Shown in pieces: positions 5,911 to 63,705 of a stretch of 64,000 bases of DNA. Source of the DNA: Tepidisphaeraceae bacterium (GTDB taxonomy: Bacteria > Planctomycetota > Phycisphaerae > Tepidisphaerales > Tepidisphaeraceae). The notes below the pieces were generated by a model, which had not been told where the DNA came from, did no database searches, and saw only the letters and a program-made list of their open reading frames with translations. The stretch lies in assembly GCA_035483795.1 (NCBI GenBank), contig DATHPP010000425.1, forward strand, positions 9,951 to 73,950. Direction: 5' to 3'. Position numbers and translations under genes: made by a program. Every line of letters starts with the position of its first letter. Position 1 is the first letter of the stretch.

Positions 5911-6966
5911 TCATAACAGATTCGCATACGGGATCGGCTTCAAGCGCCGCCAGTGTCCGACATAAATCTGGCCGGTAGGGACCGATGGAGCCTGGAGCGT
6001 TTCCCAGAAGAAGTCCGGCCCTTCCACCATCGGCGTCGGATTGGCGACGGGAGTAGCGAGCTGGTGCCCGACCTTGAAGCTGGCGGTATCCAACGGGAGT
6101 CCCGTCTTGTCGAGATAAACGATCGCTTCCGTGACTCTGGTCGGCGGCTGCTCGCCCACGTAATAAAACGGGGCCATCTGCGGGGTGGGGGCCTCTGTGT
6201 CGGGCGTCATCGATTGTGCGGGCGTCGATGGTTGGAACCAACCGACCGAGCCCTTGTTGATTTCCCGAACGTCCCAGGCATCGCTCAATCCATCCGGTCC
6301 GGTAGCGCTGAACGTGGGTCGGATTTCAAAGGTCCATCTGACTTTCACGAAATACGCCTGTAGCGAGTATTCGCCGATCGGCACGATGTTTTTAACCCGC
6401 GCCTGTCCGGGCTGCACCGCCGCGTTCATCACCTTGCCCTTGATCACGAAGTTGTCTTTATTCATCGTCCCCATCAGCCGGGTTGCCGCCGCCGGATCGT
6501 AAAACGGCTGGTAGCGCGTGTAGACGAGGTTCATCGTCGGCAGATCGGTCTGCGCCGGCGGATCGTAAGGTTGTCCTGCCGCGGTCTGCACCGGCGTACC
6601 CTGGATGGTGTGGCTGAAATCGACGCTCTGAAGCGCCGGCTCCCAAGCCATCATGGGCGGCTGACTCAGAGGATCGGCGCTGGCTGGCGCTTCGCCGCCA
6701 TCAGGGACGCCGTATTCAGCGTGAACCCGGTAGACGGAGTAGAGGGATTTGTCGGCGCTGATGCTCAGACAGCGCAGGGTCGAGGAGAGATTGTGGGGTG
6801 CGTTGTAATCCACCGCGAACTGCGCCGAGCAGGCCGCGATCGCGTCCACCTCGTCGACGGCGTAGGCCACGTCGAACTCGCGGTGGGCGGTCCACTTGAG
6901 CAGGTCGACGTTGAAGTTGAGCCGCTGGTTTTCCCAGCGCTCGCTGGCTTGGGCGATGGTGGACAT
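5911..6966 (-). CDS. hypothetical tail protein (distal-tail position)
   Basis: 351-aa ORF immediately downstream of the tape-measure-like gene. The call rests on position only. Confidence 0.55.
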   Translation of the reverse strand: MSTIAQASERWENQRLNFNVDLLKWTAHREFDVAYAVDEVDAIAACSAQFAVDYNAPHNLSSTLRCLSISADKSLYSVYRVHAEYGVPDGGEAPASADPLSQPPMMAWEPALQSVDFSHTIQGTPVQTAAGQPYDPPAQTDLPTMNLVYTRYQPFYDPAAATRLMGTMNKDNFVIKGKVMNAAVQPGQARVKNIVPIGEYSLQAYFVKVRWTFEIRPTFSATGPDGLSDAWDVREINKGSVGWFQPSTPAQSMTPDTEAPTPQMAPFYYVGEQPPTRVTEAIVYLDKTGLPLDTASFKVGHQLATPVANPTPMVEGPDFFWETLQAPSVPTGQIYVGHWRRLKPIPYANLL

Positions 6967-6976: not shown

Positions 6977-8593
6977 TCAAAGACCGGCTGGAGCCATTGC
7001 GTCTTTGAGGAATTGACGGGCCATTTCGATCAGATGCTGGAGGTGGGTATTGGAGGCGTTCTGGGCGTCGAGCTGCTTTTGCCAGATGGCGCGTGCCGTC
7101 TGTTCCGCCTGCCGGGCATTGGCGGCAAACGCTTCCCGCCCTGCATCCTGGCCGAATTTCAATTCCGGCGACTGGGCAAATGGTGAGCTGAACGGCCCGA
7201 ATTCCGGCATGCCGGCCCGCGCGATCGCGGCCTTTTCGACGCCGACCGTCGCATCCCGCGCCGCCTCGATTTGCTTGCGTTCATCAGCGGTGAGGTCCTG
7301 GCCCTCGCGGAGCAGCTTGTTGAACTCCTCGCGTTTTTCGTTGAACTTCTCGTGAATCTCCAGGATCGTCGCCGCCTTCTTGGCCTGATTGCTGCCCAAC
7401 TCCGCTTCCTCGTGCAACATTTCCAGGCCGGCTGACATCACGGCTCGTCGGCGCTCCTCGCGCTCATCCTGAATCTGGTTCTGGTGTTCGATCGTGGCTC
7501 GGTGATCGGCTTCTGTTTTCTGCGCATCAATGGCCTTCTGGGTTTGATCGTGCTGCCGATAAGCGCGCTCCCTTTCGGCGGCATCGTTGAGGGGAGGCTG
7601 GCCCGCGTCCTTTCGCTTCTGGGCCTCGTCGCGGATGCGATTCAGATCGTCATTGAGCTTCAAGTCGGCGCGGCGTTTTTCTTCCTCGTATTGATTATCG
7701 CGCAGCACCTGCTCGGCCTCGAAACTTTCGTTCAACCCGTGCAGTTCTTCGGCGTCAGCTTCGGCGGCAAGACGCCTCAGCTTTATTTCATGCTCGGCGT
7801 CGTCGGACTCCAATCGCTCGTTGTGCGCGGCGTTGCGGTCGCGCTCCTCACGGCGAAATTTATCGTGGATGTTCTCTATCTCAATCTGCGCAGCCTTGGT
7901 GGTATCCTCGATCGCGGAATCCTTCTGGGCGATGACCCCTTTCTCCAACTCGGTCGGATTGAAGTGGTGTTTCTTGTATTCTTCAAGTTCCTTCCGCAGG
8001 TCCGCGATGCGATCGGCTGCCGCCCGCGCCGCGTTTCCGACCGCCGCCCCCTCCGCGCTCATACCCGGTCGTTGCTGAGCCCGCGCCTCCGCCAGTTCAT
8101 TCAGGGCCGATCGCTGCTCGTGATAGGCGCGGGTGGTTTCTTCCAGCTTCTCGTGCAGATATTTCAGGGTGCCGGCGTCCGAGCGGGCGCGGTCGATCAC
8201 CTTGTCTGAAGCGCCGGCCTCTTTGAGTTGTTCTGCGTGCAAGTCTTTGTAAGCATCGACGACCCGATCGAGGGCACCGACCAGCGGGTCGATTGACGAC
8301 ACCACATCAAGCATGCCTTGAACCTTGGCCTTGTGCAGGTCTTCGGCATCCGTCGCCTCCGAGACTCTTTCCGTGTAGGCCCGCATCCCCTCTGCCGCTC
8401 GATTCAACCCTTCGGCCAAAAGGGCGACCACAATCCCGGCACCGCCGAGCTTCAAGCCATGCTCCAGCAGGCGCGCTCCTCCACGGCTTTCGTGGATAAA
8501 GTTTTCCAGCTTTTCCTTTGCCGACTTATAAGCCTCGGCAGTCATGTCCTTTGCGCGGAGCCAGAAAGTGATTTGTTCGGTGCGCTCGGCCAT
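6977..8593 (-). CDS. tape-measure-like coiled-coil protein
   Basis: 538 aa, extremely E/K/A/R-rich and helical (…KELEEYKKHHFNPTELEKG…). It has a hydrophobic segment GGAGIVVALLAEGL near the N-terminus and sits downstream of the tube/chaperone genes. Confidence 0.55.
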   Translation of the reverse strand: MAERTEQITFWLRAKDMTAEAYKSAKEKLENFIHESRGGARLLEHGLKLGGAGIVVALLAEGLNRAAEGMRAYTERVSEATDAEDLHKAKVQGMLDVVSSIDPLVGALDRVVDAYKDLHAEQLKEAGASDKVIDRARSDAGTLKYLHEKLEETTRAYHEQRSALNELAEARAQQRPGMSAEGAAVGNAARAAADRIADLRKELEEYKKHHFNPTELEKGVIAQKDSAIEDTTKAAQIEIENIHDKFRREERDRNAAHNERLESDDAEHEIKLRRLAAEADAEELHGLNESFEAEQVLRDNQYEEEKRRADLKLNDDLNRIRDEAQKRKDAGQPPLNDAAERERAYRQHDQTQKAIDAQKTEADHRATIEHQNQIQDEREERRRAVMSAGLEMLHEEAELGSNQAKKAATILEIHEKFNEKREEFNKLLREGQDLTADERKQIEAARDATVGVEKAAIARAGMPEFGPFSSPFAQSPELKFGQDAGREAFAANARQAEQTARAIWQKQLDAQNASNTHLQHLIEMARQFLKDAMAPAGL

Positions 8594-38943: not shown

Positions 38944-40737
38944 TTAATGCCCGGCGTTCTTGTAGACGCCGCGGAAGTCGATGGCCTTTCCGGCAACCGT
39001 ATGGCGCACCAGGTATTTCACGTCCTCGGTGTCGAAGTCGGTCTCCTGGCGGATGACGGGCTCGGGCTCGTCGGTCAGGAAGCTGAGTTCGATGGTGTTG
39101 ACCTGTCCGTCGCGGAAATCGGCCACCAGGAACCAGGCTTGCGTGTCGGCATCGTCCAGACGGACGCTCCCGACCACCTGGTAGCGGTTGTTGTAGGGGT
39201 TGAAATCGCCCACCGTCTGCGGCACCGCAGCCGACGACGACTGGCTGGCGATCAGGGTCCGGGAACCGATCAGTTCCTTGGTCTGCTCCTCGATCGAGGA
39301 GGGGACCAGGAGGAACTTGGGCTCCAATTCAAGGCGGGCCGCACCGGCCAGACCTTTCTGCTTCTTCATCGCCGTCGAGCCGATTTGAAGCTGGAGCACG
39401 CTGGGCACGCCGCCCGAACCGGCGGTGGTGAGGTTGCTGTGGGCGGCGGAGAAGATGGCGTTGCCGTCGGCCATGTTGGCGTTGCCGGTGATGACGGCGT
39501 AGGCCACGTCGTCTTCCTTACGGGCGGCGGAATTGGCCTGCGCCCTGGGAATTGCGCTAAAAGCATCCAAGTCGTCGTTAATGATGGCGTTGCGCGTTAA
39601 ACGGACACCAGCTTTGTACGTGACCAGCACGTAGGTCTCTTTCGAGTCCTGGAGCTGGACGTACTGCATTTCGCCGGCTTCGTTGGCCGCGACCATGTTC
39701 GGGGCTTCCGACAGGACAACCCGATTGATGTTCTTGAAGTCCGGGTTGAAGCGCTTCTCCGCCCAGGCGGGCCAGGTCCGCTTGGCGTCCAGATAGTTGA
39801 AGCGCAAACTTTTGTTGATCGCGTCGAGCGTGATGTTGCCGAAATCCGGGGTGGATTCCGCCAACGCCGCCATGCGCGGGAAGGCTTGCCGCATGCGGCG
39901 CGGGCCCAGGCAATCGGCCAGGCGGGTCTTGGAGTAGCCGTAGACCTCGGTGAATCCAAGGGACGCCAGGTAATGCCGGAACATGTCGAGCATGGACAGC
40001 TCGCGCAGTTCCTTGGCCCGATCGAGGATCTTGCCCTCGTATTTGATGATCTGCTCGGCCGCCAGTCCGGCGCGGAGCACGATGGCCTGCGGCATGGCGG
40101 CGCGCAGGCTGGCGAGGTTCTTGTCCTCGCCCACCTTCACGCTCAGGAGCGGCTTGGCCGACTCGTGCACGTAGCGCAGGATGGCCATCCGGGCCTGCTC
40201 GAAGGTGCCGTTTTCCGCGATCACCGTATTGGCATAGGCATCGGGAACGGCGTGCAGGGCGGCCAGTTTGCGGATGCGGGCCACTCTTTTTGCCTCGAAA
40301 TCCAATGCCGCGTTGTCGTTGTCGGCATCGTCCAGCTTGGCGGCGACACCGCCGGCCGCCGGCGCTTGCATGCGCTGGCCCTGGGGGAGTTTGGCGCCGG
40401 TGGCGGCGCCCAGTGCGGCGATCGCGGCCTCGGTGGCCAGCTTGATGATCTGCTCCTGGCTCATGCCGGTGGCGGGGACGGCCACGCCCTGGCCGGGCAA
40501 TGCGCCAGCGGCGCCGGAATCGCCGGAGTTGCCGGCGACGGAGGGCTGGCCGGGAACGGGCGGGCCGGCGTGCAGGCCGGTATCGCCGCCGTCGCCGTCC
40601 ATCATGCGCGCGAGCTTGGCGTCGATGTCGGCGCGTTTGTCGGCCGACAGGCCGTCGTAATAGGACTTGGCGTCATCATCTGAGGCATCGGCGTCGCAGC
40701 CGTTCGCCACGAGAAGTGACTTGAGATGGGGGTGCAT
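38944..40737 (-). CDS. major capsid protein (HK97-fold type) with long N-terminal scaffold-like region
   Basis: ATG 40737 is preceded by GAAGGAG. The C-terminal ~330 aa (…ITLDAINKSLRFNYLD…TYKAGVRLTRNAIINDD…FLLVPSSIEEQTKELI…) follow the major-capsid pattern. The N-terminus is acidic, Ala-rich and helical. The track start at 40842 lies inside a repeat. Confidence 0.7.
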   Translation of the reverse strand: MHPHLKSLLVANGCDADASDDDAKSYYDGLSADKRADIDAKLARMMDGDGGDTGLHAGPPVPGQPSVAGNSGDSGAAGALPGQGVAVPATGMSQEQIIKLATEAAIAALGAATGAKLPQGQRMQAPAAGGVAAKLDDADNDNAALDFEAKRVARIRKLAALHAVPDAYANTVIAENGTFEQARMAILRYVHESAKPLLSVKVGEDKNLASLRAAMPQAIVLRAGLAAEQIIKYEGKILDRAKELRELSMLDMFRHYLASLGFTEVYGYSKTRLADCLGPRRMRQAFPRMAALAESTPDFGNITLDAINKSLRFNYLDAKRTWPAWAEKRFNPDFKNINRVVLSEAPNMVAANEAGEMQYVQLQDSKETYVLVTYKAGVRLTRNAIINDDLDAFSAIPRAQANSAARKEDDVAYAVITGNANMADGNAIFSAAHSNLTTAGSGGVPSVLQLQIGSTAMKKQKGLAGAARLELEPKFLLVPSSIEEQTKELIGSRTLIASQSSSAAVPQTVGDFNPYNNRYQVVGSVRLDDADTQAWFLVADFRDGQVNTIELSFLTDEPEPVIRQETDFDTEDVKYLVRHTVAGKAIDFRGVYKNAGH

Positions 40738-40830
40738 ATGCACTCCTTCAAAAATGGAGAGGGAGAACGAACTGCGACCCGGCAACGCGCCGAGTCCATG
40801 CACCGCCGTTTTCAAGAGCTGGTGGGGGAG

Positions 40831-40949
40831 GTCACTCGTCATTGGTCACTGGTCATTTGTTTAGGGTTCCCATCCGCGATCAATCGCGGATGGGAGGCCC
40901 TTGGGCGCGCGGCCCTGGCAAGTGACCAGTGACAAGTGACAAATGACCA
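40831..40949. repeat. inverted heptamer-array element (family C), copy 4, with nested hairpin
   Basis: GTCACTC GTCATTG GTCACTG GTCATTT, an inner hairpin cccatccgcgatcaatcgcggatggg, the spacer gggcgcgcggccctgg shared with copy 2, then caagtgaccagtgacaagtgacaaatgaccag. Confidence 0.8.
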
Positions 40950-43370: not shown

Positions 43371-43532
43371 ACATGGACCGTAAGCGGCACGAATGCCCCG
43401 GCCAACTTAGTCTATTCGAGCCTGTTGCGCAGTCGGTTCAGACCAGCAGCGCCGTCAATTCCTCGTCATCCTGATAGCGCCGGGCCAGCAGCGGATCGGC
43501 CTCGAAGCTGCGGGCGGACAGATCGAGCGGGC

Positions 43533-43997: not shown

Positions 43998-44000
43998 TGC

Positions 44001-47203: not shown

Positions 47204-47207
47204 GTGG

Positions 47208-47594
47208 TTACTGGTTGATGATCGCGGTCGTGACTTCCTGAGTCTGAACCTGTACCGTCCACGTCGCAACTGACCCGCCACCGGACAACACTTGTACGGC
47301 GTACTGCCCTGTCTCAAGCCGAAGACTGACCTGCTGCAAACCGCCTGACTGGCGTGGCAATCCCAGAGGTTGAAGCGGCTGCGTATCGAAGGTGTTTCCG
47401 CCGTCTGTCGAGCGATAAGCGAAGACTTGCGGTCCGGCCGAAACGTTGGTGGGGAACTGAACGATGATCGGGATCTTGATCTGCCACGCCTGCGTGATGT
47501 TGACGGTGAATGTGAAGGACGAAGATTGCCCGATGCCGATGCCGGCTTGAATCGTCGCGGTCCAGGTTTCAACAGGTGTTGCGACGGTGCTCAT
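47208..47594 (-). CDS. small beta-sandwich protein with Asp-box
   Basis: FAYRSTDGGNTFDTQP is an SxDxGxT[WF] Asp-box. 128 aa. It overlaps the upstream glycosyltransferase by 4 nt. Confidence 0.55.
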   Translation of the reverse strand: MSTVATPVETWTATIQAGIGIGQSSSFTFTVNITQAWQIKIPIIVQFPTNVSAGPQVFAYRSTDGGNTFDTQPLQPLGLPRQSGGLQQVSLRLETGQYAVQVLSGGGSVATWTVQVQTQEVTTAIINQ

Positions 47595-49458: not shown

Positions 49459-52400
49459 CAGACGCGGTTGTTGGCGAATTCCAGCCAGGTCTTGAACAGG
49501 CTCCCGGCGGTGCTGATCTGAGAGAAGGCGATGGCGCCGTTGGCTTGGCCGGCGTTGTTCAGGTACGTCGAAGCGGGCGAGTAGGTGGCGCTGAACGAAC
49601 CGTGGCCCGGCGAAGGTGCCATAGTGGCGGCGCTGCCCTGTCCCATCCGGCCAAGAGAAGACGCGAGCGAATTGGTGAAGCCGACGTAAGTCAACTGGCC
49701 GCTGAGCGTGAGGTTCGAGGCGTTGACCGACAGGGTGAAGGTTCTCCCGGCCGCGCCGCTGGTGCTGGCAGATGAACTGCTCGACGACGTGCTCGACGCC
49801 ATGTTGACGCCGATCCAGTAATCGCCCGGTGAAAGGGAAGATGCGAAGGCGAGAGGCACGATCTTGTTGGAGGCCCAAGCCGTCGTCGCCATCCAGGTTC
49901 CGGTCAACGAGAAGGAAGACGTGGCGCCGGTCGCCCCAGTGGTGCTGCTGGAGTTGCTGATGCTGCTGGTCCATGATCCGTAGCCGGGCGCCCAGGTGGT
50001 GATGGTCGTCGCCGCGTTGATCGTCGTCATCGTGTTGCTGGTCAACGATGGGAAAGAGACGGTCGCGGCGGCGCTGGAGCTGATGCTGATGGTGCTGTTG
50101 GTGACGTTGAAGGCGTAGGTGTGACCCTCATAGGTAACGAAGGAATTCCGCGTCGAGGCGAAGGTCCACAGTTCATCGGTGAAGCCGCCCGAGCCCCGGC
50201 TGAACAGGTACAGGTCCACCAGGTTGGAGTTGGTGAAAGAGTAGGAGGCGTTGGCGTTGAAGCTGCTCGCCCCGCCGTTGCTGAACGTGACCGTGTTCGC
50301 CGCCGAGGTGCTAGTCAGGCTGGCGCTGGCGATGACGTTGACGACGTTGAAACTGAGGTAATTGTCGAGGCGGAAGGGCTGGAGGAACATCGTCCCCAAA
50401 CCGCCGCTGGTCGTCGCCGAGCCGACATTGAATTCGTAAGGCTCGAAATACGAATTGGTGTAAGCGGGGACGCCGATGGAGATGGTGCTGGCATTGACGC
50501 TGATGGAGACCAGACCCGTGCCGGAGAGTGATGAAGTCTGCGGGACGGAGACGACCCAGCCGGAATTCGAGGCCGCGATCGAGCATGCCCCGCTCCCGGC
50601 CATGGAAATACTTCGGGCATCATAGCTTCCCGATGAAGTTCCGAAGGTGTTCGAGGAAGCGTAGACGCTGCCGGTTTGATTCGTCTGCGAGGCGGCCGAG
50701 ATCGTCACCGACTGGCCGTTCTGGCTGAGCGTGACGTTGTTCCCGCCCGCCAGAATCGCGGTGCCGCTGGAGATGAGGGCATAGCCAGCGCCGGCTGAGG
50801 TCGAGTTCCCGGCCAGGCTCAGGTCAACGCAGTTCTGGGTTTGCACCGTCTGCGTGAAGGCCGACACGGTGACGGAATTCCCGTTCTGCGAAAGCGTGAC
50901 ATTGTTCCCACCAGCCAGGACAAGCGTACCGCTGGAGACCAGAACGTAACCGGCCCCGGCTGAGGTCGAGTTTCCCGAGAGCGTGACATCGACGCAATTC
51001 TGTGTCTGCACCGTCTGCGTGAAGGCCGAGACCGTGACCGCGTTGCCGTTCTGGCTCAGGGTGACGTTGTTGCCACCGGCCAGGGTCATCGTGCCCGAGG
51101 AGATCAGGACATAACCAGCTCCTGCGGAGGTCGAGTTGCCGGCGAGCGTGGCATCGACACAGTTCTGGGTCTGCACGCTCTGCGAAGCGGTTGCGGTGAT
51201 GGTCGAGCCGTTGAGGCCGAAGCTGACGTTGTTGGAGTTGGAGAAGACGACGCTGCCGAGATTGCCACTATTAGCGCCCGCTGAGAAATTCACCGGAGCG
51301 GCAGCGGCGTTGGCACCGGAGATGGTGACCGACTGGCCGTTTTGCGAGAGCGTGATGTTGTTGCCGCCCGCCAGGATCGCCGTGCCGCTGGAAATCAGGA
51401 TGTAACCGGCGCCGGCGGAAGTCGAGTTGCCCGACAAACTCAAGTCCACGCAATTCTGCGTCTGCACCGTTTGCGTCGGCGCGGAGATGATCCAGCCGGA
51501 GTTGGTCGCCGCGACACTGACCGCGCCGCTGCCGGCGATGCTGATCGACCGCGCATCATACGTCCCCGAGGTGCTGCTGAACGTGTTGCTGGAAGCGTAG
51601 AGGTTGCCGGTCTGATTAGTCTGGGCGACCGCGTTGGCAGCCGAGACCGTGACCGAATTCCCGTTCTGGCTGAGCGTGATATTGTTTCCACCGGCCAGGA
51701 CCATCGTGCCACTGGAAATCAGGACATAGCCAGCCCCGGCCGAGGTGGAGTTGCCCGACAGCGTCACATCGACGCAATTCTGGGTCTGGACCGTCTGACT
51801 GGCGGCCGAGACGGTGACCGCGTTGCCGTTCTGGCTTAGGGTGACGTTGTTACCGCCCGCCAGCGTCATCGTGCCCGAGGAAATCAGGGCATAGCCGGCC
51901 CCGGCCGAGGTCGAGTTGCCCGCGAGGGTGGCATCGACACAGTTCTGGGTTTGAACAGTCTGCGCCGGCGCGGAAATCACCCACCCGGAATTCGAGGCCG
52001 CCACCGAGACTGCGCCACTGCCCGCGATGGAAATGCTCCGGGCGTCGTAGGTGCCCGAAGAAGTGCCGAAGGTATTGCTCGAAGCATAGACGTTGCCCGA
52101 TTGATTGCTCTGGGCGGCGAAGCTGGCGGTCGCGGTAATCGTCGAGCCGCTGAGTCCGAAACTGACGTTGTTTGAGTTGGAGAAGGTGACCGCCGAGAGA
52201 TTGTTCGAGGTCGCGCCGGCTGACAGGTTGATATTGCTGATCGTGGCGGCATTCGACTGCATTGCCGTCGTCAGATAAGGCCCCGGCGATTGATAGTTGG
52301 TCGCGACGGTCGCCGTCAGCGTTGAGCCAGTCAGCCCGAAGGAGACGCCGTTGGAATTCGAGAACGTAAGAGCCGACAGGTTATTGGAAGTCGCGCCCGC

Positions 52401-52970
52401 CGAAATGTTGACGTTGGAGATCGTCGCCGCGTTCGACTGCATCGCCGTCGTCAGATAGGGCGGCAGATTTACACTGACCCCGCTGGTATTGACGGTGATC
52501 GAGCCGCCGGTGATCGCGCCGTTCACCCCCGCGTAGTTGCTGGAATTCTGCGACAGGTCCGCCGTGGTCAGGTAGGGCGGCAGGTTGACCGACACACCCG
52601 AGGTGTTCACCGTGATCGAGCCGCCGGTGATCGCGCCGTTCGTCCCGGCAAACGCCGTTTCGATGTCGGTGATCGTCTTGACGGTGATGGTCGCGGCGAT
52701 CTGATCGCCCACCACAATCGAGCGGGCCGAGGTTCCTTCCTGGGTTCGGACGATGGTCAGCGTGTCGGTCGAGACGTTGGTGACGCGGACGATCTCGGCA
52801 TTGCTGGCCATCGGGATCGAGCCGGTCGGCCAGACGGTGGCATTGAACGGCACCGGGGGGAAAAGGCTGCCGCCACCGGCCGAAACGACCAGGGTGGTGC
52901 CGCTGGACGCCGGCGCGGGCGCAGTGGCAACCAAGGTATACGCGAGGTTCTTGTGTTGATCGAAGGGCAT
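49458..52970 (-). CDS. tail fibre / adhesin with modular internal repeats
   Basis: The N-terminus ...PPVPFNATVWPTGSIPMASNAEIVRVTNVSTDTLTIVRTQEGTSARSIVVGDQIA is a motif I recognise from phage minor-tail and fibre proteins. It is followed by 7 copies of a ~54-aa unit QTVQTQNCVDxxLxGNSTSAGAGYxLISSGTxxLAGGNNxTLSQNGxxVTxSA and three other repeated modules. Confidence 0.75.
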   Translation of the reverse strand: MPFDQHKNLAYTLVATAPAPASSGTTLVVSAGGGSLFPPVPFNATVWPTGSIPMASNAEIVRVTNVSTDTLTIVRTQEGTSARSIVVGDQIAATITVKTITDIETAFAGTNGAITGGSITVNTSGVSVNLPPYLTTADLSQNSSNYAGVNGAITGGSITVNTSGVSVNLPPYLTTAMQSNAATISNVNISAGATSNNLSALTFSNSNGVSFGLTGSTLTATVATNYQSPGPYLTTAMQSNAATISNINLSAGATSNNLSAVTFSNSNNVSFGLSGSTITATASFAAQSNQSGNVYASSNTFGTSSGTYDARSISIAGSGAVSVAASNSGWVISAPAQTVQTQNCVDATLAGNSTSAGAGYALISSGTMTLAGGNNVTLSQNGNAVTVSAASQTVQTQNCVDVTLSGNSTSAGAGYVLISSGTMVLAGGNNITLSQNGNSVTVSAANAVAQTNQTGNLYASSNTFSSTSGTYDARSISIAGSGAVSVAATNSGWIISAPTQTVQTQNCVDLSLSGNSTSAGAGYILISSGTAILAGGNNITLSQNGQSVTISGANAAAAPVNFSAGANSGNLGSVVFSNSNNVSFGLNGSTITATASQSVQTQNCVDATLAGNSTSAGAGYVLISSGTMTLAGGNNVTLSQNGNAVTVSAFTQTVQTQNCVDVTLSGNSTSAGAGYVLVSSGTLVLAGGNNVTLSQNGNSVTVSAFTQTVQTQNCVDLSLAGNSTSAGAGYALISSGTAILAGGNNVTLSQNGQSVTISAASQTNQTGSVYASSNTFGTSSGSYDARSISMAGSGACSIAASNSGWVVSVPQTSSLSGTGLVSISVNASTISIGVPAYTNSYFEPYEFNVGSATTSGGLGTMFLQPFRLDNYLSFNVVNVIASASLTSTSAANTVTFSNGGASSFNANASYSFTNSNLVDLYLFSRGSGGFTDELWTFASTRNSFVTYEGHTYAFNVTNSTISISSSAAATVSFPSLTSNTMTTINAATTITTWAPGYGSWTSSISNSSSTTGATGATSSFSLTGTWMATTAWASNKIVPLAFASSLSPGDYWIGVNMASSTSSSSSSASTSGAAGRTFTLSVNASNLTLSGQLTYVGFTNSLASSLGRMGQGSAATMAPSPGHGSFSATYSPASTYLNNAGQANGAIAFSQISTAGSLFKTWLEFANNRV

Positions 52971-52986
52971 CGCTCAAAGGTGAAAG

Positions 52987-53397
52987 TCAGTTGATGACCA
53001 CCATTGCACTCGCGCCGGCCGGGGGAAGCTGCACGGTGAAATTGGCGGCGCTGACGGCAAAGTCGCTGCCGAAGTTGATGACCGCAATCGCGTTGTTGGA
53101 GCGGGTGGCGTTGTAGATCAAGGCCCCTCGCGCTGTGAACGTCGCCATCGTCCACACGGGATTGTTCCAGCTCAGATAAGCCGAATCGCCTGACAATCCC
53201 GCCGCGTAACCCGAAAGCGCCATCCCCCCAGCCGTGTAGCCGCTGCCGACCACTTCACCGGCTGAGGTGTAAGCCGTCGTCGTCTTGTCCAGGTTCGCGC
53301 TTGAGGTGTACAGCGCGATCATGTACTGATCGCCCGGCTGGTGCAGCCCGGCCTGGAAATCCTGCTTGGCCTGATCGGTGAACGCGTGGGTGATCAT
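52987..53397 (-). CDS. hypothetical virion protein
   Basis: 136-aa beta-rich protein (…YMIALYTSSANLDKTTTAYTSAGEVVGSGYTAGG…) between the portal and the fibre. Confidence 0.5.
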   Translation of the reverse strand: MITHAFTDQAKQDFQAGLHQPGDQYMIALYTSSANLDKTTTAYTSAGEVVGSGYTAGGMALSGYAAGLSGDSAYLSWNNPVWTMATFTARGALIYNATRSNNAIAVINFGSDFAVSAANFTVQLPPAGASAMVVIN

Positions 53398-53792
53398 TCA
53401 TCGCCGTCGTCGTTGTCGCTGCCGCCGATCTGGAGATCGATTTTAATTTGGTGCCCATTGTTCTCCACCTTATATGGGCCGTCACTAAACCGGTGTCCGC
53501 CCACGATGACATCGCCGCAGCTCACGTAATAGCCGTAGACGTTCTCCGGGGGCTGGGGCGAGGTGGAGCGGAAAATCTGCTGCGGATAAACGATCGCCGG
53601 CTCTCCCTCGTTTTGCACTTCGCGCCAGCGGGCGGGGTCGAGCGGAATCGGCGAGTAGCCCAGGAAATTCGGTTGGGTGAAGAAATTCTCCTCGAAGTCC
53701 GGACGCACGTCGTTGCCGAACAGGCGCAGGACCAGGTCGTTGCGGGCGGTGAGTCCGCGCAGACAGAGCACGATTGCAGCGCGGGTGAGCAT
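53394..53792 (-). CDS. hypothetical virion protein
   Basis: 132 aa, directly downstream of the portal. It overlaps the next gene by 4 nt. Confidence 0.5.
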   Translation of the reverse strand: MLTRAAIVLCLRGLTARNDLVLRLFGNDVRPDFEENFFTQPNFLGYSPIPLDPARWREVQNEGEPAIVYPQQIFRSTSPQPPENVYGYYVSCGDVIVGGHRFSDGPYKVENNGHQIKIDLQIGGSDNDDGDE

Positions 53793-53795
53793 CGA

Positions 53796-56700
53796 TTACT
53801 TTTCCCCGCCGGACGCCTCATCAGGCGGATTCGGCTCCACGGTAGGTTCGGGAGGCGCCGGGGGGGGCGAGGCGGGAAGAATGGGCGTTGGGTTCTGGGT
53901 AGTGATCTCGTCGCGGAATCCGGTGACCGTTCCATCGGCATCGCGGATGAAATGACGGGTCATTCCCGACGTCTCGTCTTTCACTTCCGAAGTCAATCCA
54001 TCGGCATCGCGGACGATCGTATGAATCCCCGGAGCGCGAGGCGGCACGGTGACGTTGACGATCGGCGCTTCCACATTCACCTGCGCGGGAGGTGCCGGCG
54101 GCGGAAGGACCGGGGCGGCCACGTTGACGATCGGCGCTTCGACGGTGATCTGCGGCGGCTCGGGTGGCTCGGGTGGATCGGGGAGCTGAATGATCGGAGC
54201 GAGATTCACCACCGGCGCTTCCAGATACACATCGGGCGCAGCTGACGGCGGCGGGGCGTGCAGATGAATGACCGGCGGCTGCACTGTCACCTGCGGCGCG
54301 GCAGACGGCTCGACGTTGATGATCGGCGACTCGACCGTCACCTGGGGCGATGCCTGCGGCGCGGAGGGGGCGGCGTGATAGTGCATTACAGGAGCAGGTT
54401 GTGGGGGAAGGTCCACATTGACGATCGGGGACACGTTCACCGGGGACTGCACCGTGAATTGCGGCGGCAGGGGGGGCAGGGGAGTCGGCAGGGGGGGCTG
54501 CGGGGGAAATTCCACGTTGATGATCGGTGACACGTTCACCTGCGCCGGAGCTGGCGCTTGCACGGCCAATCCGGCGGCGGCTCTGAGCGATGCCAGGTCG
54601 ATCTGCGGCGCTTGATGAATGTGAATGGCGGGAAGCTCCGGCCGCTCTCCCCCTCGCCCCCTCTCCCTTTCGCCCGCTCTCCTCACCAAACGGCGCTCTT
54701 CGGCGCTCATGCTGGTCGTCTGCCCGAACGGGCCGTAAGGATCGCTGTCGGGATAGAACCGGCTTTCCAGATCGATCTGTCCCGGCTGCGGGCCTGGGGG
54801 AAACGTCTTGGCCGTGTTCGGCACGCCGATATTTTCGGTCAGCGTCCTGGCGATCCATTTGTCGCAGACGTAGCTGGGATCGAAAATGAAATTGAACATC
54901 GTGCAGCGTGAACCATTGGCGAACGAGCAGGTGGCGCAGCTCGACACTTCATCGGGCGATTGGCGGTAATTCGGCACCGAGGGCGGGGGAACCTGCGGAA
55001 GCGGCCACGGTCCGCCGGCCACTTCATCGCGGGCCTGGCGATCGGCTGCCGATTGCACGTCGACCCCCCCTGCGGGACTGCCGCGCTGCTGCTGGAGGAT
55101 GAAATCGCTGACGCCTTCCACCGTGCCCCCCCCGCCCGGCGCCGCACTGGCCGCGATGCGACCGCCCGCCTTGGCTGGCGTTTTGCCGTTCTTGCCCTTC
55201 CCATTGCCGTCCTGTCCTGAGCTTGTCGAAGGGTTGCCATTTCCGCCCGGAGGCTTGGGCGCGGGGGCCGCCGGCATGGCCACGTGCACGTGCACGCCCT
55301 GTCCACTTCCCCCTCCCGGCTTTGGCGCCGGTGTCGCCGCGGCTCCGTTTCCTCCGCCTCCCCCTCCCCCACTCTCCCCCTCTCCCCCTCCTCCTCCCGC
55401 CGGCACCGCCGGTTCCTCCACTCCGCCACCGATGACTTTCCCAGCTTTGTTGGTGACCGGATCGCCGGTGATCGTCCCGCCCGTCGGCGTCTGCACCGGC
55501 AGGAGCGGCTGGGTGTAATTCTTCTGCACCGGCAGACCGCCCTGTTGGAACATCGCTGACAGATCAAGCAGGTTGGCGCTGACGGCGTCGACCGTCCCCT
55601 GGCGATTCTCGATGGCCGCTTTGACCAATTCGCGGACGTTGTTCCGCTCGTCGTCGTTCTCCGGCAGCGTGAGTCCGCGGTTTTCGGCCAGGTTCTTCTC
55701 CTCGGCCAGCTTCTCGATGACGTGCGAATAGCGCCCGCCGCGCAACGCGACGATCTCCTCGCGGGTGATCAGGCGGTTCTTGAGCAGGATGACGAAGGCG
55801 TTGGCTTCCTTCTCGGGATCGATCCACGACTGACTGGGCGGGAGATAATCCGCTTCGACATAGCGAAAACGATCGGCGAGGAACTCGTCGGTTGAGAATC
55901 CCTCGATCCCGTCCAGCCGGCCTTCCATCACCGCCCAGTTGAAAAACAGTTCGTAGGCGGGCCGGACCATGGCGTCGATGAATAGTTGCTGCTCGGGCTC
56001 CTGTTCCTTGCGATCTTCCAGCATGTCCTGGCGGGCGGCGGAGTAGTTGGAGTCGTTGCGCCGCGCGATCTGGCCGTAGCTCTGGCCCAAAGCCGCGCCG
56101 ATGCCGCGCACGGTCGTCTCCATGAACGGGTTGTATTGATTGCCCGGCGATTGCGGCACCAGGCTCTGGACCTTCTCACCCGGTACGGTTCGCGCGACCA
56201 TGCCGGGGACGAAGTCGATTTCGTTCATCCCACTGGGCGTCTGGCCGCTGCCGTTGGTGGGCGGACCGAATGAGGTGGCGGGGCCGATGTTGTTGCCGGG
56301 CATCGGTTGCTCGATGATTAATCCGATGCAGCTTTCCATTTCCATGCGCCAGATCGAGGCCGTCTGAACGCGGGAGATATCGCGCATGTCGGCCATCACC
56401 GGGGACAGACCGGTCACGCCGCGGGTCTGCAAAACTCTTTCCTGATCGAAATAGTGAAACATCCGCTGCCGGGGAACGCGCTCGGAAAAGAATGCGTGCC
56501 GATATAAAACGTCGTTGGGGTTACGGGTGTAAATGTGGTATGCGAGCGGCGCCCCGTTCTCGTCCACTTCCACCCCGCCTCTGACTTCCCGTCCGGCATA
56601 GCTGAGAATGCGCAGGTCGAACTGTTCCGCCTCGAAGGCTTGCAAGCGCAGACCGACCGGTTGATTGCGATCGATGATCCCCTCGTTGAGCAAACCGGGG

Positions 56701-57239
56701 AACTTGTAGGACCACATCCACAGGTGCTCGCCGGCGATGAACTTGTCGGCCGCGGCCAGTCTTTGCATCTGGTTGAAGCTCTTGCGCCGCTCGATGTCGC
56801 AGTGCAGACACCAGCGGTGCCACAAGCGGGCCACCACCAGATTCAATTGCGTCAGCGGTTTGCCCTTGGGGTCTTTGGCGTGGGGGATGACTTGAATGCC
56901 CTTGCCGACGACGTTGCGGACGAAGGATTTCTTCGCCGACCGCGCCAGCCAGGAATCGCGATCGAGCTGCCGCGCCCGCCCGATCATCACCGGGGAATCG
57001 GGGATGTTGGCTAAATCTGCCGAGGCGTTGTTGGCCCGCCAGTCGGTGTTGCGGCGTCCGGTATCGGCGGCGGCGTGGATGGAGAGGGCGGCCTGTCCCT
57101 CGCGCATCCTTTTCTTGGTCGCCTGGAGGGCCATCACCTCGACCTGGGCGCGGAGCCGGCGGGCCTGCTTCTCGGCGGGCAGCTCCATCTCCGGCGCGGT
57201 GGCGCGGTTGATCGGGCGGTAGGGATTGCGGCGGGGCAT
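53796..57239 (-). CDS. portal protein (lambda gpB family) with ~600-aa C-terminal extension
   Basis: From ATG 57239 (MPRRNPYRPINR...). RRNTDWRANNASADLANIPDSPVMIGRARQLDRDSWLARS and VRGIGAALGQSYGQIARRNDSNYSAARQDMLE parallel conserved lambda gpB blocks. The C-terminal half is Gly-rich and Pro-rich, with 8 or so PI[VI]NV repeats. Confidence 0.85.
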   Translation of the reverse strand: MPRRNPYRPINRATAPEMELPAEKQARRLRAQVEVMALQATKKRMREGQAALSIHAAADTGRRNTDWRANNASADLANIPDSPVMIGRARQLDRDSWLARSAKKSFVRNVVGKGIQVIPHAKDPKGKPLTQLNLVVARLWHRWCLHCDIERRKSFNQMQRLAAADKFIAGEHLWMWSYKFPGLLNEGIIDRNQPVGLRLQAFEAEQFDLRILSYAGREVRGGVEVDENGAPLAYHIYTRNPNDVLYRHAFFSERVPRQRMFHYFDQERVLQTRGVTGLSPVMADMRDISRVQTASIWRMEMESCIGLIIEQPMPGNNIGPATSFGPPTNGSGQTPSGMNEIDFVPGMVARTVPGEKVQSLVPQSPGNQYNPFMETTVRGIGAALGQSYGQIARRNDSNYSAARQDMLEDRKEQEPEQQLFIDAMVRPAYELFFNWAVMEGRLDGIEGFSTDEFLADRFRYVEADYLPPSQSWIDPEKEANAFVILLKNRLITREEIVALRGGRYSHVIEKLAEEKNLAENRGLTLPENDDERNNVRELVKAAIENRQGTVDAVSANLLDLSAMFQQGGLPVQKNYTQPLLPVQTPTGGTITGDPVTNKAGKVIGGGVEEPAVPAGGGGGEGESGGGGGGGNGAAATPAPKPGGGSGQGVHVHVAMPAAPAPKPPGGNGNPSTSSGQDGNGKGKNGKTPAKAGGRIAASAAPGGGGTVEGVSDFILQQQRGSPAGGVDVQSAADRQARDEVAGGPWPLPQVPPPSVPNYRQSPDEVSSCATCSFANGSRCTMFNFIFDPSYVCDKWIARTLTENIGVPNTAKTFPPGPQPGQIDLESRFYPDSDPYGPFGQTTSMSAEERRLVRRAGERERGRGGERPELPAIHIHQAPQIDLASLRAAAGLAVQAPAPAQVNVSPIINVEFPPQPPLPTPLPPLPPQFTVQSPVNVSPIVNVDLPPQPAPVMHYHAAPSAPQASPQVTVESPIINVEPSAAPQVTVQPPVIHLHAPPPSAAPDVYLEAPVVNLAPIIQLPDPPEPPEPPQITVEAPIVNVAAPVLPPPAPPAQVNVEAPIVNVTVPPRAPGIHTIVRDADGLTSEVKDETSGMTRHFIRDADGTVTGFRDEITTQNPTPILPASPPPAPPEPTVEPNPPDEASGGEK
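54644..54695. repeat. family A element (C-rich on plus strand) inside the portal CDS
   Basis: gctctccccctcgccccctctccctttcgcccgctctcctcac encodes ...GERERGRGGER... in the portal extension. Confidence 0.65.
55349..55410. repeat. family A element (C-rich on plus strand) inside the portal CDS
   Basis: cctccgcctccccctcccccactctccccctctccccctcctcctcccgcc encodes GGGGGEGESGGGGGGG. Confidence 0.65.
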
Positions 57240-57426
57240 TACAATGGAGACCGATGAAATTTCTTCACGCGATGATGACGTCGATGGCGCGGGCCGTCTG
57301 TCTGCTTTCGCTCGGGGTCTTGGCAGCAAAGGGAGATGCGCATACGACGCCGATGGGGAAGGAGGTCCTTCTGCTCGCGATCGCGTTGACTGCGGGAATC
57401 GGATGGATGGAGAGGCCGAGAAAAGA

Positions 57427-57789
57427 TTAGCGGAGGGCGGCGAGTTGCTGATGACCGCCAAGGGGCTGCCCGACCTCGGTGCGCGAGTTGCTGAGATTTT
57501 CGTGCAGGATGACGAGCATCTTTTCCACGTCGTCGATCAGTTCCCTTTGCTCGCGGATCAAACGGGCCAGCGGCGCACGGCCTTCCGGTCGGATCGGCGA
57601 GGGATCGACGCCCTTTTGGCCTTCGCCGAACATGATCCCGCGCCAAGTGTCATGCACACCGCGAGCCTGGGAAGCCACGTGCATAAGTTGCTGGTTGTTC
57701 TCGAAAAGCATCTGGGCGACGTCATCAAGATTGAGGCCGTCCGGCTTGGCGGGTTGAAGTTGTCCGGCGAGTTGTTCAACGCGGTTCAT
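57427..57789 (-). CDS. hypothetical protein upstream of the portal
   Basis: 120-aa helical ORF in operon orientation. Confidence 0.5.
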   Translation of the reverse strand: MNRVEQLAGQLQPAKPDGLNLDDVAQMLFENNQQLMHVASQARGVHDTWRGIMFGEGQKGVDPSPIRPEGRAPLARLIREQRELIDDVEKMLVILHENLSNSRTEVGQPLGGHQQLAALR

Positions 57790-59865: not shown

Positions 59866-61245
59866 TTACTCAGGTTGAGACTGCGCGTGTCGGATGCGCT
59901 TCTGGGCGATCTTGAAGTAGGCGAGTTCTCTTTCGATGCCGATGAACTTCATCCCTTCCAACACTGCCGCTTTTCCGGTCGAGCCCGAGCCCATGAAGCA
60001 GTCGAGCACCGTGCCGCCGGGCGGGGTGATGAGGCGGATGAGCCAGCGCATCAAGTCGGTGTTTTTGACCGTGGGGTGATGATTCGCTCGTGGCGGGATT
60101 TCTTTTCGCTCGCTGCCGTCGGGTCGATGCGTGTTCGTGTTCATCCCGTAGGGCTGGCCGTCGTCGCGTCGGACGTGTTTCTTCGGGGCGTCTTCCAATC
60201 CCTCGTTGCGGTCGCGCCGGCTGGCTTTGGCGCAGTAGAAGAAACGGGAAGCGCCACCGGAGTCGCCGTGTCGGTTCTGTGAATTCTCGACGCCGCCCAA
60301 GCCATTGCCGAAAACCTCGTTCAAATAGTTCGGCCCGCGTGGCGCTTGCACTCCAGCCGATCGCGTGACGCCGCTCTGCTCATTCAGCAGCCTCACCGGG
60401 CAGTCGGGGTGACAGTCGCCGTTACAGGAGGGATGATGGGATAAAACGAGGTTCGCCGGCCAGCGACCTTTGTCCATGCCGTTCAGGTACGGCGCGAGCG
60501 ACGCCGGCCCATTCTCGAATTGCCCGTAAGCATGCCGCCCCTTGTTCTGGTCATGGCACAGGCGTTGCGCTGCTGCTGCTGCTGCTGCTGCTTTATCTCC
60601 GTTGGAGGCGAATCCGATCCTCGTCCCGTCGATATTCAGCGCCCCCGTTCCGTGCTTCAAGACGTTCCTGGCTACCGTCGATTCACTCAGGGGCTTACGA
60701 CAGAGCCACCAGTCTTCCACGGCGGGTTTGAGGGCGGTGCCGAAGCCGTCATATTGCTTCGCGGCATCGGTGGCGGGCGCGGTAATCGGCGGATGCGATT
60801 GTTCTTTGCCCGGCTTGTCTCCGACCCAAATCGTTTTTCCGTCCTGATTCGGCCTCGCGTGCGGATTCTCTCTGATGAATTTCCGCTTCGCGCCGGCTTC
60901 GCGGTCGATCGCTTTCCCCACGGACAAACTTTTCGGGAAGCCCGTACCAAAGATGTGCGCAATTCTTTCGCGTACCTCAAACCCCGCGTCTTCAATCGCC
61001 ATCCCCGTCCAGTGGCTCGTCCGCGGGATCGCCCACACCAGGGCATGACCGCCGGGCTTGAGCACCCGTAAGCATTCTTTCATCACTTCGGTCAGGAAGG
61101 CGATGAAGGCTTCACGGGGGCCTAAGTCATCCCAAGCCTTCCCCATGAACGAAATTCCCGCCGGCGGATCAGTCACGATGGCATCGACGCTGTCGGCGGC
61201 CAGCGTGCGTAGCACCTCCAGGCAATCGCCGCGGAACAGGCGCAC
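59866..61245 (-). CDS. site-specific DNA methyltransferase (N4/N6 type, beta-class motif order), orphan
   Basis: DAIVTDPPAGISFMGKAWD is motif IV and VLDCFMGSGSTGKAAVLEG is motif I near the C-terminus. The likely start is GTG 61245 (RLFRGDCLEVL). The track start at 61380 overlaps the terminase and a repeat. No restriction partner is visible. Confidence 0.8.
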   Translation of the reverse strand: MRLFRGDCLEVLRTLAADSVDAIVTDPPAGISFMGKAWDDLGPREAFIAFLTEVMKECLRVLKPGGHALVWAIPRTSHWTGMAIEDAGFEVRERIAHIFGTGFPKSLSVGKAIDREAGAKRKFIRENPHARPNQDGKTIWVGDKPGKEQSHPPITAPATDAAKQYDGFGTALKPAVEDWWLCRKPLSESTVARNVLKHGTGALNIDGTRIGFASNGDKAAAAAAAAQRLCHDQNKGRHAYGQFENGPASLAPYLNGMDKGRWPANLVLSHHPSCNGDCHPDCPVRLLNEQSGVTRSAGVQAPRGPNYLNEVFGNGLGGVENSQNRHGDSGGASRFFYCAKASRRDRNEGLEDAPKKHVRRDDGQPYGMNTNTHRPDGSERKEIPPRANHHPTVKNTDLMRWLIRLITPPGGTVLDCFMGSGSTGKAAVLEGMKFIGIERELAYFKIAQKRIRHAQSQPE

Positions 61246-61250
61246 GGTCT

Positions 61251-61305
61251 TGCCCTCGCCCCCTCTCCGCGTCCCCGTGTCGCCGCGTCTTCGCGTCTCT
61301 TTCAC
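61251..61305. repeat. octamer-array element (family B) with a family A-like end
   Basis: The reverse complement reads gagacgcg aagacgcg gcgacacg gggacgcg gagagggggcgaggg. It lies between the terminase stop (61307) and the methyltransferase start. Confidence 0.65.
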
Positions 61306-61306
61306 C

Positions 61307-63296
61307 TCAGCGCGGCCTGGGCCTAATCGGCGGGCGGGAATGCACCCAGTCAAATTTCTGTTTCTCCGGCTTGGGGTCATTGGCGACTTGGATGGGACGG
61401 GGCTCGGGATTGCCGGCCCCCAGATCGAAGGCGGCGGCGCACTGGAGGACTTCCGTGTCCCACATATGGTTCGCTGAGCCGCTGGTGACCTTCACCCACA
61501 GCTCTTTCCCCGTTTTCCGCTCGAGAACCTTGTGTTCCGACGCCATCTGGCTGATGTAGTCCTCGTCGATCCCCGAATTCACCGCCCATTTGCCCAGATC
61601 GGGATCGTGAATCAGCCGGTACAGCAGGTCTTTCGCCTTCTCGGTGTCGATGTTGAACAGGACGATGTCGTGGTTCTTCTGGTGACTCTTGCCCAGCAGC
61701 GTTGCCAGCGTCGTTGACGAGCCCTTGGTCGGCCGGATGCGCAGGCGATCGGATTGAGCGAATTGATAGACCTCCGACCAGCGCGGGCCGCCCGAGTCGA
61801 TGAAAAGCACCTGCGGCGCGATGCCGTTCGGCCCGATTTGCCCCCCTGTCGCCCCCGCCCCCCCTGAAACGGAGGCGTTTTGGGCGTTTTGGACGAGATT
61901 TTGGCCGTTCTCGAGGGGAAAAACCTTGTTCAGACACCGCTGCCGCAGCTCCTCGAAAGAGTTGGCGATGCCGTGCTCGATCAGTTGGCTCCGGAACTCA
62001 TAGCCCCAGGCCCGGACAACGTAGGGGAACCATCCATCTCGGGCAGTCGTCCCTTGCGTATCGGCACTGGCGACCAGCGCTCGAGCCCAGGCGGGAACGA
62101 TGCCCGGCGGCGGGGCATTGAACGACTTTTCGCGGATGAAAGAGGGCGCTGTCTTGGCAACCTGCAACTCGAAGGGCTCGGCGAGCCACGAATTGCGGAA
62201 GTTCATCGTCTTGGCGGGGTCATGTTCGCAGCGAATGAACTCCGCGACGGCATCGGCGAAGCTGGGCCACGGTGAATACAGGCAGGAGATGTGGAACCCG
62301 ACGCGCTTCGAGCGCGGGCGCTCTCCGATCAGCTTTCCCTCCAGCGTGACCGACTGACCCTCGCTGACCCACAGACCCTTGAGGAGCATGGCGGGTTTCC
62401 GCGAGTCCTCGATCCGCGCCTTGCACTTGCTGCACTCGTACCAGGCCAGCTTGTTGACCTGGATCTCATCGGCCAGACGTACCTTGTCGGGGATGTCCAG
62501 CTTGGGCCACTTGACCTGCGTGAAAACCAGCCGCTGAAACGTCCCGCAGAAGGGGCACGGAACTTCAAAATGGCGCCTGTCGCCGCTCGCTTCGTAGGAT
62601 TTCCAGATCGCCCCTTCGCGATTGGTGGGGCTGGAGACTTTGAAGATGCGCTTGCGGTGCTGGTAGGTGAGCGTGCGCTGATAGGCCAGCGAGATCGGAT
62701 CGGCTTCGCGCCCTGAGAAGGCGATGAACTTGTCCACCTCGTCAAAGAAACACGTAGCGTATTTGGCGTGCGGCGAGAGTGGACGGCGAGCCGGCCCAGC
62801 CGCCGAACAACGTCATCGAATCCAGGACGATCGTGTGAGTTTTGGTGTCCCACTTCCGGCTGCTCATGTGGCGCTTCAGCGCCGGGGAGCTTTCCAGGAG
62901 CGGCTTGATCTTTTCAGCGAAGACCTCCTTACAGGCTTGCTCGACGGGAAGGACCAGCAGCGCCGGGCCGGGGTCCTGATCGATGCAGAAGCCGATGACG
63001 TTGTGAAGCGCCAGGCTGACGCCGATCTGCGTGGCCTTGACGACGGTGATTTCTTCGATGCCCTCCTCGACCGCGGCGTCCATGATGCCGGCGAGATAGG
63101 GCGTTCTGTCATTGTTGAACGGGCCGGGCTCGGGACTGGTGCCGGGGGCGAGAACGCGATGGACGGCCGACCATTGGCTGGGGGTGAGCCGATCGGGCCA
63201 GCTCCAGGCGCGCTGCTCGGATTCGGACCAGTGCGCTTCCGCTGCCTCTGACTGCGGCGACGGATCAGGGACGGGTGAGACAGACGGCTCAATCAC
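61307..63296 (-). CDS. terminase large subunit (lambda GpA family), reading frame broken by +1 at 62741-62747
   Basis: Track ORFs 62742..63296 (…TPYLAGIMDA…VVKATQIGVSLAL…PGPALLVLPVEQ…IRYVFL*) and 61307..62737 ((V)DKFIAFSGREADP…FEVPCPFCGTFQRLVFTQVKW…) are the two halves of one GpA-type protein. Joined, they read IRYVFLDEVDKF, a Walker B motif. Confidence 0.85.
62741..62747 (-). other. CTT TGA C at the terminase frame junction (prfB-type +1 site, or a 1-nt insertion)
   Basis: The coding strand reads GTG TTT CTT TGA CGA GGT GGA C. Shifting +1 on CTT-T gives ...V F L D E V D.... Confidence 0.4.
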
Positions 63297-63298: not shown

Positions 63299-63327
63299 TT
63301 GCCGGACACTGCGCATGTCGCTAGAGT
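63299..63327 (+). promoter_or_regulatory. sigma70-like promoter candidate (TTGCCG-17-TAGAGT) giving a leaderless or near-leaderless HTH mRNA
   Basis: -35 at 63299-63304, a 17-nt spacer and -10 at 63322-63327, with the start codon 7-10 nt downstream. It contains the conserved motif GTCGCTAGAGTATTG. Confidence 0.4.
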
Positions 63328-63333
63328 ATTGGC

Positions 63334-63582
63334 GTGATGGGCGCGACGCCGCTTGACAAGATGCTGACCGTCTCGGAAGTCGCCAGGGAATTGGATCGTT
63401 CCGTCGCCCGCGTGCGCCAGTTCATCGACTCGGGCGAGCTTCCCGCCCGGAAGGTGAATCCCCGCCTGTATCTGATCGATCCCGCCGATCTGGCCCGCTT
63501 CCGCAAACGCAAGCGCCCACCGGGCTGGAAGAAGGGCCGCAAGCGCGGGAAAGCCAGGGCGAAAACCCGACCGCGTTTATAG
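63334..63582 (+). CDS. excisionase/MerR-type HTH DNA-binding protein with basic tail
   Basis: MLTVSEVARELDRSVARVRQFIDSGELPARKVNPRLYLIDPADLARF followed by RKRKRPPGWKKGRKRGKARAKTR. It is a paralogue-like match to 21356..21553 and is divergent from the terminase gene. Confidence 0.7.
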   Translation: MMGATPLDKMLTVSEVARELDRSVARVRQFIDSGELPARKVNPRLYLIDPADLARFRKRKRPPGWKKGRKRGKARAKTRPRL

Positions 63583-63649: not shown

Positions 63650-63678
63650 TTGAAATACCCTACGCACGTCGCTATAGT
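63650..63678 (+). promoter_or_regulatory. sigma70-like promoter candidate (TTGAAA-17-TATAGT)
   Basis: -35 at 63650-63655, a 17-nt spacer and -10 at 63673-63678. It contains GTCGCTATAGTATTG, the same motif as at 63317. Confidence 0.45.
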
Positions 63679-63705
63679 ATTGATGTCAGAAGAAAGGAAA
63701 CCAAA

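Follow-up and report, generated by a model that had tools for sequence, protein, structure and literature searches.

In a phage-like element from a Tepidisphaeraceae bacterium (GenBank assembly GCA_035483795.1, contig DATHPP010000425.1, positions 9,951 to 73,950), the large terminase gene is divided between two reading frames, and the first of these ends at CTT TGA C, the heptamer used as the +1 frameshift site of the release factor 2 (RF2) gene prfB. Positions below are those of this 64,000-nucleotide stretch, which was analysed as a whole and is referred to as the window. The break is best explained by a recent, real insertion of one base in the terminase gene, with a probability of roughly 0.55; the site probably stems from a recent mutation or from a sequence error and represents no new recoding signal. 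The find is classed as a terminase gene disrupted by a frameshift, in a novel phage associated with Planctomycetes.

Structure of the split terminase gene

The gene lies on the minus strand and occupies two frames, the second being +1 to the first. Across the junction, the minus strand reads CGC CAA ATA CGC TAC GTG TTT CTT TGA C GAG GTG GAC AAG TTC. The N-terminal part, in frame 0, is an open reading frame (ORF) of 184 codons plus the TGA at 62744-62742 (62742..63296, minus strand), ending in ARQIRYVFL. It contains a deviant Walker A region, VKATQIGVS, which aligns with the K/A-x-x-Q-x-G-x-S/T region of the homologues, and the Walker B strand R-Y-V-F-L. The C-terminal part, in the +1 frame (61307..62743, minus strand), holds the remainder of the GpA ATPase domain and the GpA nuclease domain, with no second lesion up to its stop at 61307. 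At the junction this frame encodes C F F D E V D K F I A F S G (…FFDEVDKFIAFSG…).

When joined, the two parts form a protein of 662 residues. Pfam GpA_ATPase (PF05876) matches it as a single stretch at residues 54-309, covering profile positions 1-247 of 247 (221 bits, E 2e-65), and GpA_nuclease (PF20454) is matched as well (134 bits, E 9e-39). Since the single ATPase-domain match runs across residues 184/185, the frame change falls inside the ATPase domain. In the alignment with 21 homologues, Y-V-F-(L/F)-D-E of the joined protein lines up with the Walker B motif (hhhhDE), with E186 and D188 occupying invariant columns. An earlier sequence-only reading of the window had described a GpA-type large terminase split where the frame changes by +1 at CTT TGA C, with Walker B restored by joining the frames; the ORFs, the Pfam matches and the alignment confirm both statements.

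In 21/21 aligned homologues, R-Y is followed by exactly three residues and then by D-E-x-D-K. This fixed spacing indicates a surplus of exactly one nucleotide, which lies within GTG TTTCTTT GAC. The stretch with the surplus T, GTG TTT CTT TGA C, spans 13 nucleotides (62741..62753, minus strand), with T-runs at 62750-62748 and 62746-62744. The heptamer CTTTGAC occupies 62747..62741 on the minus strand, with CTT TGA at 62747-62742 in frame 0 and the following C at 62741. Sequence and profile searches gave no PDB relative on whose structure the junction could be placed.

The Walker B Asp-Glu codons, GAC GAG (62738..62743, minus strand, +1 frame), lie between the frame-0 stop and the GTG at 62737. 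This GTG is the earliest possible downstream start, 4 nucleotides past the stop, and the 25 open +1-frame codons above it contain no ATG, GTG or TTG. As the Asp-Glu codons follow the frame-0 TGA and precede the GTG, they belong to neither ORF and are translated only through a +1 shift. A 476-residue product is annotated from GTG 62737. The JGI and NCBI records, in which the sequence belongs to a contig of ~121.5 kb (121,573 and 121,544 bp) of a Tepidisphaeraceae metagenome-assembled genome (MAG), both list two separate 'terminase' proteins (HSZ58572.1 and HSZ58573.1), annotations that hide a broken gene.

On sequence grounds, the gene belongs to the lambda GpA large-terminase family as a divergent member; its domains, motifs and neighbourhood fit, whereas a single frame does not hold. 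As in lambda gpA-type terminases, the two domains are both matched end to end, Walker A is deviant, Walker B has the hhhhDE form, and a lambda-family portal, a capsid and a decoration gene belong to the same head module. Unlike in those terminases, the coding sequence here runs in two frames, and identity to any protein in the databases searched is at most ~60%.

Relatives and the origin of the extra T

The homologue search covered 5.8 billion protein clusters and yielded 435 homologues, the best 120 of which were looked at and 21 aligned. With the window's own C-terminal ORF left aside, the best 120 of the 435 are proteins of ~550-680 residues with both domains, plus one protein of 978 residues and one partial protein at a contig end, and no split homologue is found among them. 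A junction-centred protein query of 162 residues returned only the window's own N-terminal ORF. In GTDB genomes, 18 loci with 32-54% identity were recovered, and the tblastn matches of the N- and C-terminal parts share one frame in 18/18. At locus L012, the junction DNA runs uninterrupted as CGC TAC GTT ATC TTT GAC GAG GTG GAC AAG. Among 826 cultured-phage records, the terminase matches listed are all single pieces. Conservation of the TGA and the frame change in homologous phages, a point raised by the sequence-only reading, was checked and not found; the gene is uninterrupted in all relatives examined, and the frameshift site is not conserved among the homologues.

Near relatives were also sought in IMG/VR and JGI metagenome contigs, giving only one locus, 23% identical. 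No relative above ~60% identity appears in any collection searched (protein clusters, IMG/VR, JGI metagenome, GTDB), so that the comparison reaches only relatives below that level. A terminase 42% identical is carried by a prophage in a 587-kb Tepidisphaeraceae contig (L009).

Without one T of the first run, the text becomes GTG TTC TTT GAC (V-F-F-D); without one of the second, it becomes GTG TTT CTT GAC (V-F-L-D). In the homologues, the Walker B Asp is most often preceded by Phe (RYVFFDECDK in P0009, for example). In the window, TTC and TTT account for 81% and 19% of Phe codons, and CTT for 9% of Leu codons. The Phe preference of the homologues, together with the TTC-rich, CTT-poor codon usage, favours TTC TTT GAC as the ancestor over TTT CTT GAC, and a VFFD ancestor is several-fold likelier than a VFLD one. 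The most plausible event would be the growth of the TT run to TTT in an ancestor reading GTG TTC TTT GAC, within the Walker B β-strand.

Read one base out of frame, the C-TTT-GAC of a VFFD ancestor already spells CTT TGA C. In a simulation from this ancestor, 8.2% of all possible one-nucleotide insertions in the gene terminate at this heptamer, and 0.32% do so from no more than three codons away. The resemblance to the prfB site largely follows from the Phe-Asp pair in Walker B; it would arise automatically when C-TTT-GAC is read out of frame, with no evolved signal. The less likely part is only the closeness of the insertion to the heptamer, which is also the sole configuration noticeable as a 'clean' frameshift site. 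Any in-frame NNC-TTT-GAC read one base early becomes CTT TGA C, so that finding the RF2 heptamer at a frame break is by itself weak evidence, a practical lesson for frameshift hunting.

The intact state of the C-terminal 476 codons and of the portal, capsid and decoration genes suggests that the lesion is young. By the GeneTack criteria, a singleton frame transition validated by BLASTp and Pfam is taken as a sequencing error or a recent indel, and the programmed class needs a site conserved within a cluster (PMC3711429). The terminase resembles these singletons in having one frame transition validated by homologues and Pfam and no cluster that shares the site. It differs from singletons in general in that the transition falls exactly at the best-known +1 shift heptamer.

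The CUU UGA C heptamer and the rival explanations

The prfB cassette consists of four sequence elements: an element resembling a Shine-Dalgarno (SD) sequence, UAU or UCU as the spacer codon, CUU UGA as the shifty stop and a C in the fourth position (PMC13245932, PMC5009743). The SD-like element is a major and highly conserved part of the cassette, and CUU UGA C is the most efficient +1 shift site known in bacteria (PMC13245932, PMC5009743). At the terminase junction two of the four elements are present, namely the CUU UGA shifty stop and the following C, a weak termination context. The identity with the prfB heptamer was correctly recognised in the sequence-only reading, which left unstated that the feature is on the minus strand. 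Its remark that no SD-like stimulator precedes the site also holds. None is found 3 nucleotides upstream of the CUU, where the 15 nucleotides AAUACGCUACGUGUU pair with the anti-SD sequence at +0.6 kcal/mol (a prfB-like control, AGGGGGUAU, reaches -10.6 kcal/mol) and more weakly than 88% of 15-mers in the same messenger RNA. The spacer (E-site) codon is UUU, neither UAU nor UCU. Weakly pairing E-site codons favour +1 shifting in E. coli studies (PMC13245932), and the UUU spacer, which pairs weakly, could functionally favour shifting though it is not the conserved codon. The RNA around the site (151 nucleotides) folds no better than shuffled sequences (z = -0.75), and the heptamer is not enriched in the window, with 10 copies against 6.5 ± 2.6 expected.

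As in prfB, CUU UGA is followed by C, and the functional product is encoded in the +1 frame. The prfB site differs in its SD-like element and UAU or UCU spacer; the terminase site has neither, and no conservation in homologues. Moreover, the prfB site lies at about codon 25 of a release-factor gene, whereas the terminase site is codon 185 of a gene that encodes no release factor and has no autoregulatory logic. The terminase site is therefore not filed in the prfB class, and it could still act as a weak, unstimulated version.

The same heptamer also occurs at 6976-6982 on the minus strand, where it ends the ORF 6977..8593 (minus strand). A further minus-strand ORF, 5911..6966, begins 10 nucleotides after it in the +1 frame, with no stop between. 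As a recoding site this copy was rejected, since upstream homologues end there and the downstream ORF is an orphan. The protein of ORF 6977..8593 has 11 homologues of 229-618 residues, those covering its C-terminal part ending at the same place, and ORF 5911..6966 has no homologue apart from its own record. Judged by these comparisons, the heptamer at 6976-6982 is an ordinary stop.

Two other routes past the terminase stop were considered. Stop-codon reassignment or readthrough was rejected, as it would carry frame 0 past the TGA into RGGQVHRLL..., which is non-homologous. Transcriptional slippage is unlikely; it requires runs of greater length than T3, the longest run present.

Standard decoding stops after residue 184, and the downstream ORF cannot supply the Asp-Glu pair. 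With Asp-Glu in neither standard product, no active terminase results from standard decoding. The succession of UUU_C and CUU_U before UGA C would be intrinsically shift-prone. From work in E. coli, we infer that CUU UGA C keeps some +1 shiftiness without an SD sequence and that UUU_C before the rare CUU may provide another point of slippage. If a few ribosomes slipped +1 there, some full-length terminase could be made, as an adventitious, compensatory leak not subject to selection. Full-length terminase could thus appear at a low, unselected level, much like the products of 'savior' or compensated indels, which are read by low-level frameshifting, as at the G-run of herpesvirus thymidine kinase (Atkins et al. 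2016, PMC5009743). The likeness is that an indel in a needed gene may be partly compensated by low, unprogrammed slippage. The differences are that the slip site is a shifty stop with no homopolymer run, and that the indel has no known benefit.

Three other explanations compete with a recent, real insertion. A consensus or assembly artefact ranks second and is rather unlikely: the population would carry an intact terminase, and the extra T would be a sequencing or assembly error or an assembled minority variant. Apart from the T, no defect shows in the gene or in any neighbouring structural gene, and the window resembles a functional phage genome, ~88% coding and with tightly packed operons. 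GeneTack puts validated singletons largely down to sequencing errors (PMC3711429), and the JGI and NCBI records are possibly one assembly and so provide no independent confirmation. Arguing against an artefact, uninterrupted ORFs of 1221, 1170, 641 and 632 codons point to a low indel error rate in the contig, and neither an intact version nor a junction-spanning fragment occurs among the 5.8 billion protein clusters. The T3-C-T3 tract is also no long homopolymer, and in a short-read consensus indel errors are rare at runs this short. A naturally split terminase, in which products of 184 and 476 residues would arise as separate proteins and combine to give an active enzyme, is scarcely credible, although the public annotation lists two separate proteins and a GTG lies 4 nucleotides after the stop. 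The break falls inside the Walker B strand, and the presence of the Asp-Glu pair in neither product effectively refutes the proposal. In addition, no SD sequence precedes GTG 62737, and no homologue is split at that place among those examined.

The sequence-only reading had favoured a prfB-like programmed frameshift. In a selected, programmed +1 frameshift of this type, the leucine transfer RNA (tRNA-Leu) would slip from CUU to UUU at a slowly terminating UGA-C, and terminase output, and with it packaging, would be tied to host RF2 activity. The CUU UGA with its weak-termination fourth base C equals the prfB site exactly, the slip would yield a perfect Walker B motif with no garbled residue, and the Asp-Glu codons are reachable by no other route. 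Gene and element look otherwise intact, and the weakly pairing UUU in the E site is of the kind that favours +1 shifting in E. coli. Precedent is offered by candidate recoding, through bypassing, in the terminase of Streptomyces phage Hau3 (PMC10732093, PMC5009743). Despite these points, a programmed frameshift is unsupported and quite improbable: the SD-like stimulator and flanking RNA structure are absent, two of the cassette's four elements are all that is present, and the site occurs in none of the relatives examined. It is a singleton without a close relative, and hence without evidence of selection. The heptamer serves as a normal stop elsewhere in the element, and codon usage and homologues indicate an accidental origin.

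The Hau3 terminase carries two inserts of 10 nucleotides headed by the rare codon UUA, with proposed stem-loop and SD stimulators, and the arrangement recurs in related prophages (PMC10732093, PMC5009743). In both cases a frame-disrupting insert lies in an essential phage large-terminase gene and is proposed to be overcome in translation. Unlike in Hau3, the present junction has one surplus nucleotide, no UUA, no stimulator and no recurrence, and thus lacks the marks of a bypassing site.

Several observations weigh against a recent, real insertion. It would be odd for a free phage to have fixed a lethal lesion, and the setting of a decaying prophage is not demonstrated, as no host or housekeeping gene, integrase or tRNA gene was found in the window. 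A single extra T, the other option in the sequence-only reading, is the better-supported account of the break; the label 'cryptic prophage' attached to it is not shown, the window holding no such gene and no other broken structural gene. The surplus base lies no more than three codons from the stop, so that a +1 slip leaves no garbled residue, and only 0.32% of random insertions do as much. The terminase stop moreover coincides with the most efficient of the known bacterial +1 shift sites (PMC5009743, PMC13245932). The absence of an SD sequence is weaker evidence in a lineage in which most genes of the window lack one. Finally, three public records share the split, but they may all be one assembly and are not counted as independent confirmation.

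If the T is real and uncompensated, the large element cannot package DNA, however intact it looks, and packaging ability matters for calling the element an active phage or a defective prophage. A further version, in which a large, replicating Planctomycete phage truly has the extra T as a fixed change and full-length terminase arises only by SD-independent +1 slippage at UUU CUU UGA C, is distinctly doubtful. If true, packaging would depend on the efficiency of host RF2 termination at UGA-C. The gene would then be the first terminase, among very few phage genes, expressed via a prfB-type shifty stop, representing either a signal that selection has newly taken up or an indel tolerated through compensation in translation. 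If ribosomes do slip here, the prfB shifty-stop mechanism would reach a gene for phage morphogenesis, in a lineage with hardly any use of SD sequences.

The element around the terminase

The window is phage-like throughout. A crude selection of ORFs covers 88% of it, with many start/stop overlaps of 4 nucleotides, and no second split gene was found within it. The element is a large, otherwise intact-looking phage or prophage on a contig binned with a Tepidisphaeraceae (Planctomycetota) MAG.

The terminase sits in a head-packaging module with a lambda-type portal. Directly downstream of it lies an N6/N4 DNA methyltransferase (59866..61380, minus strand), whose ORF overlaps the terminase 3′ end by 74 nucleotides; its Pfam match begins at residue 65, and the real start is probably internal. 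A GNAT protein is also encoded downstream on the same strand. The lambda-family portal of 1221 residues (53796..57461, minus strand; PF05136, E 2e-84) is uninterrupted. Only its first ~600 residues match portal profiles, and the remainder forms a C-terminal extension of ~600 residues. The protease/major capsid fusion of 632 residues (38944..40842, minus strand) is likewise uninterrupted and is followed by a decoration (cement) protein (38467-38880). A minor tail protein is encoded farther downstream.

Synteny is shared with L003 (a Planctomycetaceae MAG) and L021 (a Logan contig), whose terminases are 45-54% identical and whose terminase, portal, (protease), capsid and decoration genes form a compact module. 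The module of the window is expanded by methyltransferase, GNAT and glycosyltransferase cargo. The gap between portal and capsid (41200-53400) holds ~11 kb of cargo, comprising a 1170-residue protein of unknown function, glycosyltransferases and orphan ORFs, in contrast to the compact portal-protease-capsid arrangement of L003 and L021. In the middle of the window, a run of glycosyltransferase- and methyltransferase-like genes spans 21850-31176 on the minus strand (e.g. 23713-24288, 26464-26997 and 30082-31176), an unusual cargo density for a phage.

Directly upstream of the large terminase, no small-terminase ORF is found on its own strand, unlike in L021, and the upstream genes are divergent. 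The nearest of them, 37 nucleotides from the terminase start (63334-63582, plus strand), encodes a protein of 82 residues whose N-terminal segment is helix-turn-helix-like and whose tail is rich in Lys and Arg. The motif GTCGCTA-n-r-GTAT occurs three times on the plus strand (8620-8634, 63317-63331 and 63668-63682) against 0.13 copies expected, each copy lying 15-35 nucleotides upstream of a plus-strand gene start. One copy coincides with a promoter-like site, TTGAAA-17-TATAGT, at 63650-63678, and the motif may represent an element-specific type of promoter.

In the 20 nucleotides upstream of each of ~29 gene starts, most have no SD sequence, and the mean anti-SD pairing of -2.0 kcal/mol equals the background, which suggests SD-independent initiation in phage and host. 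Many of these leaders are pyrimidine-rich, for example TCCCCCTCTCTCTTTCCTCC and CACCCCCTCCTCCTCG.

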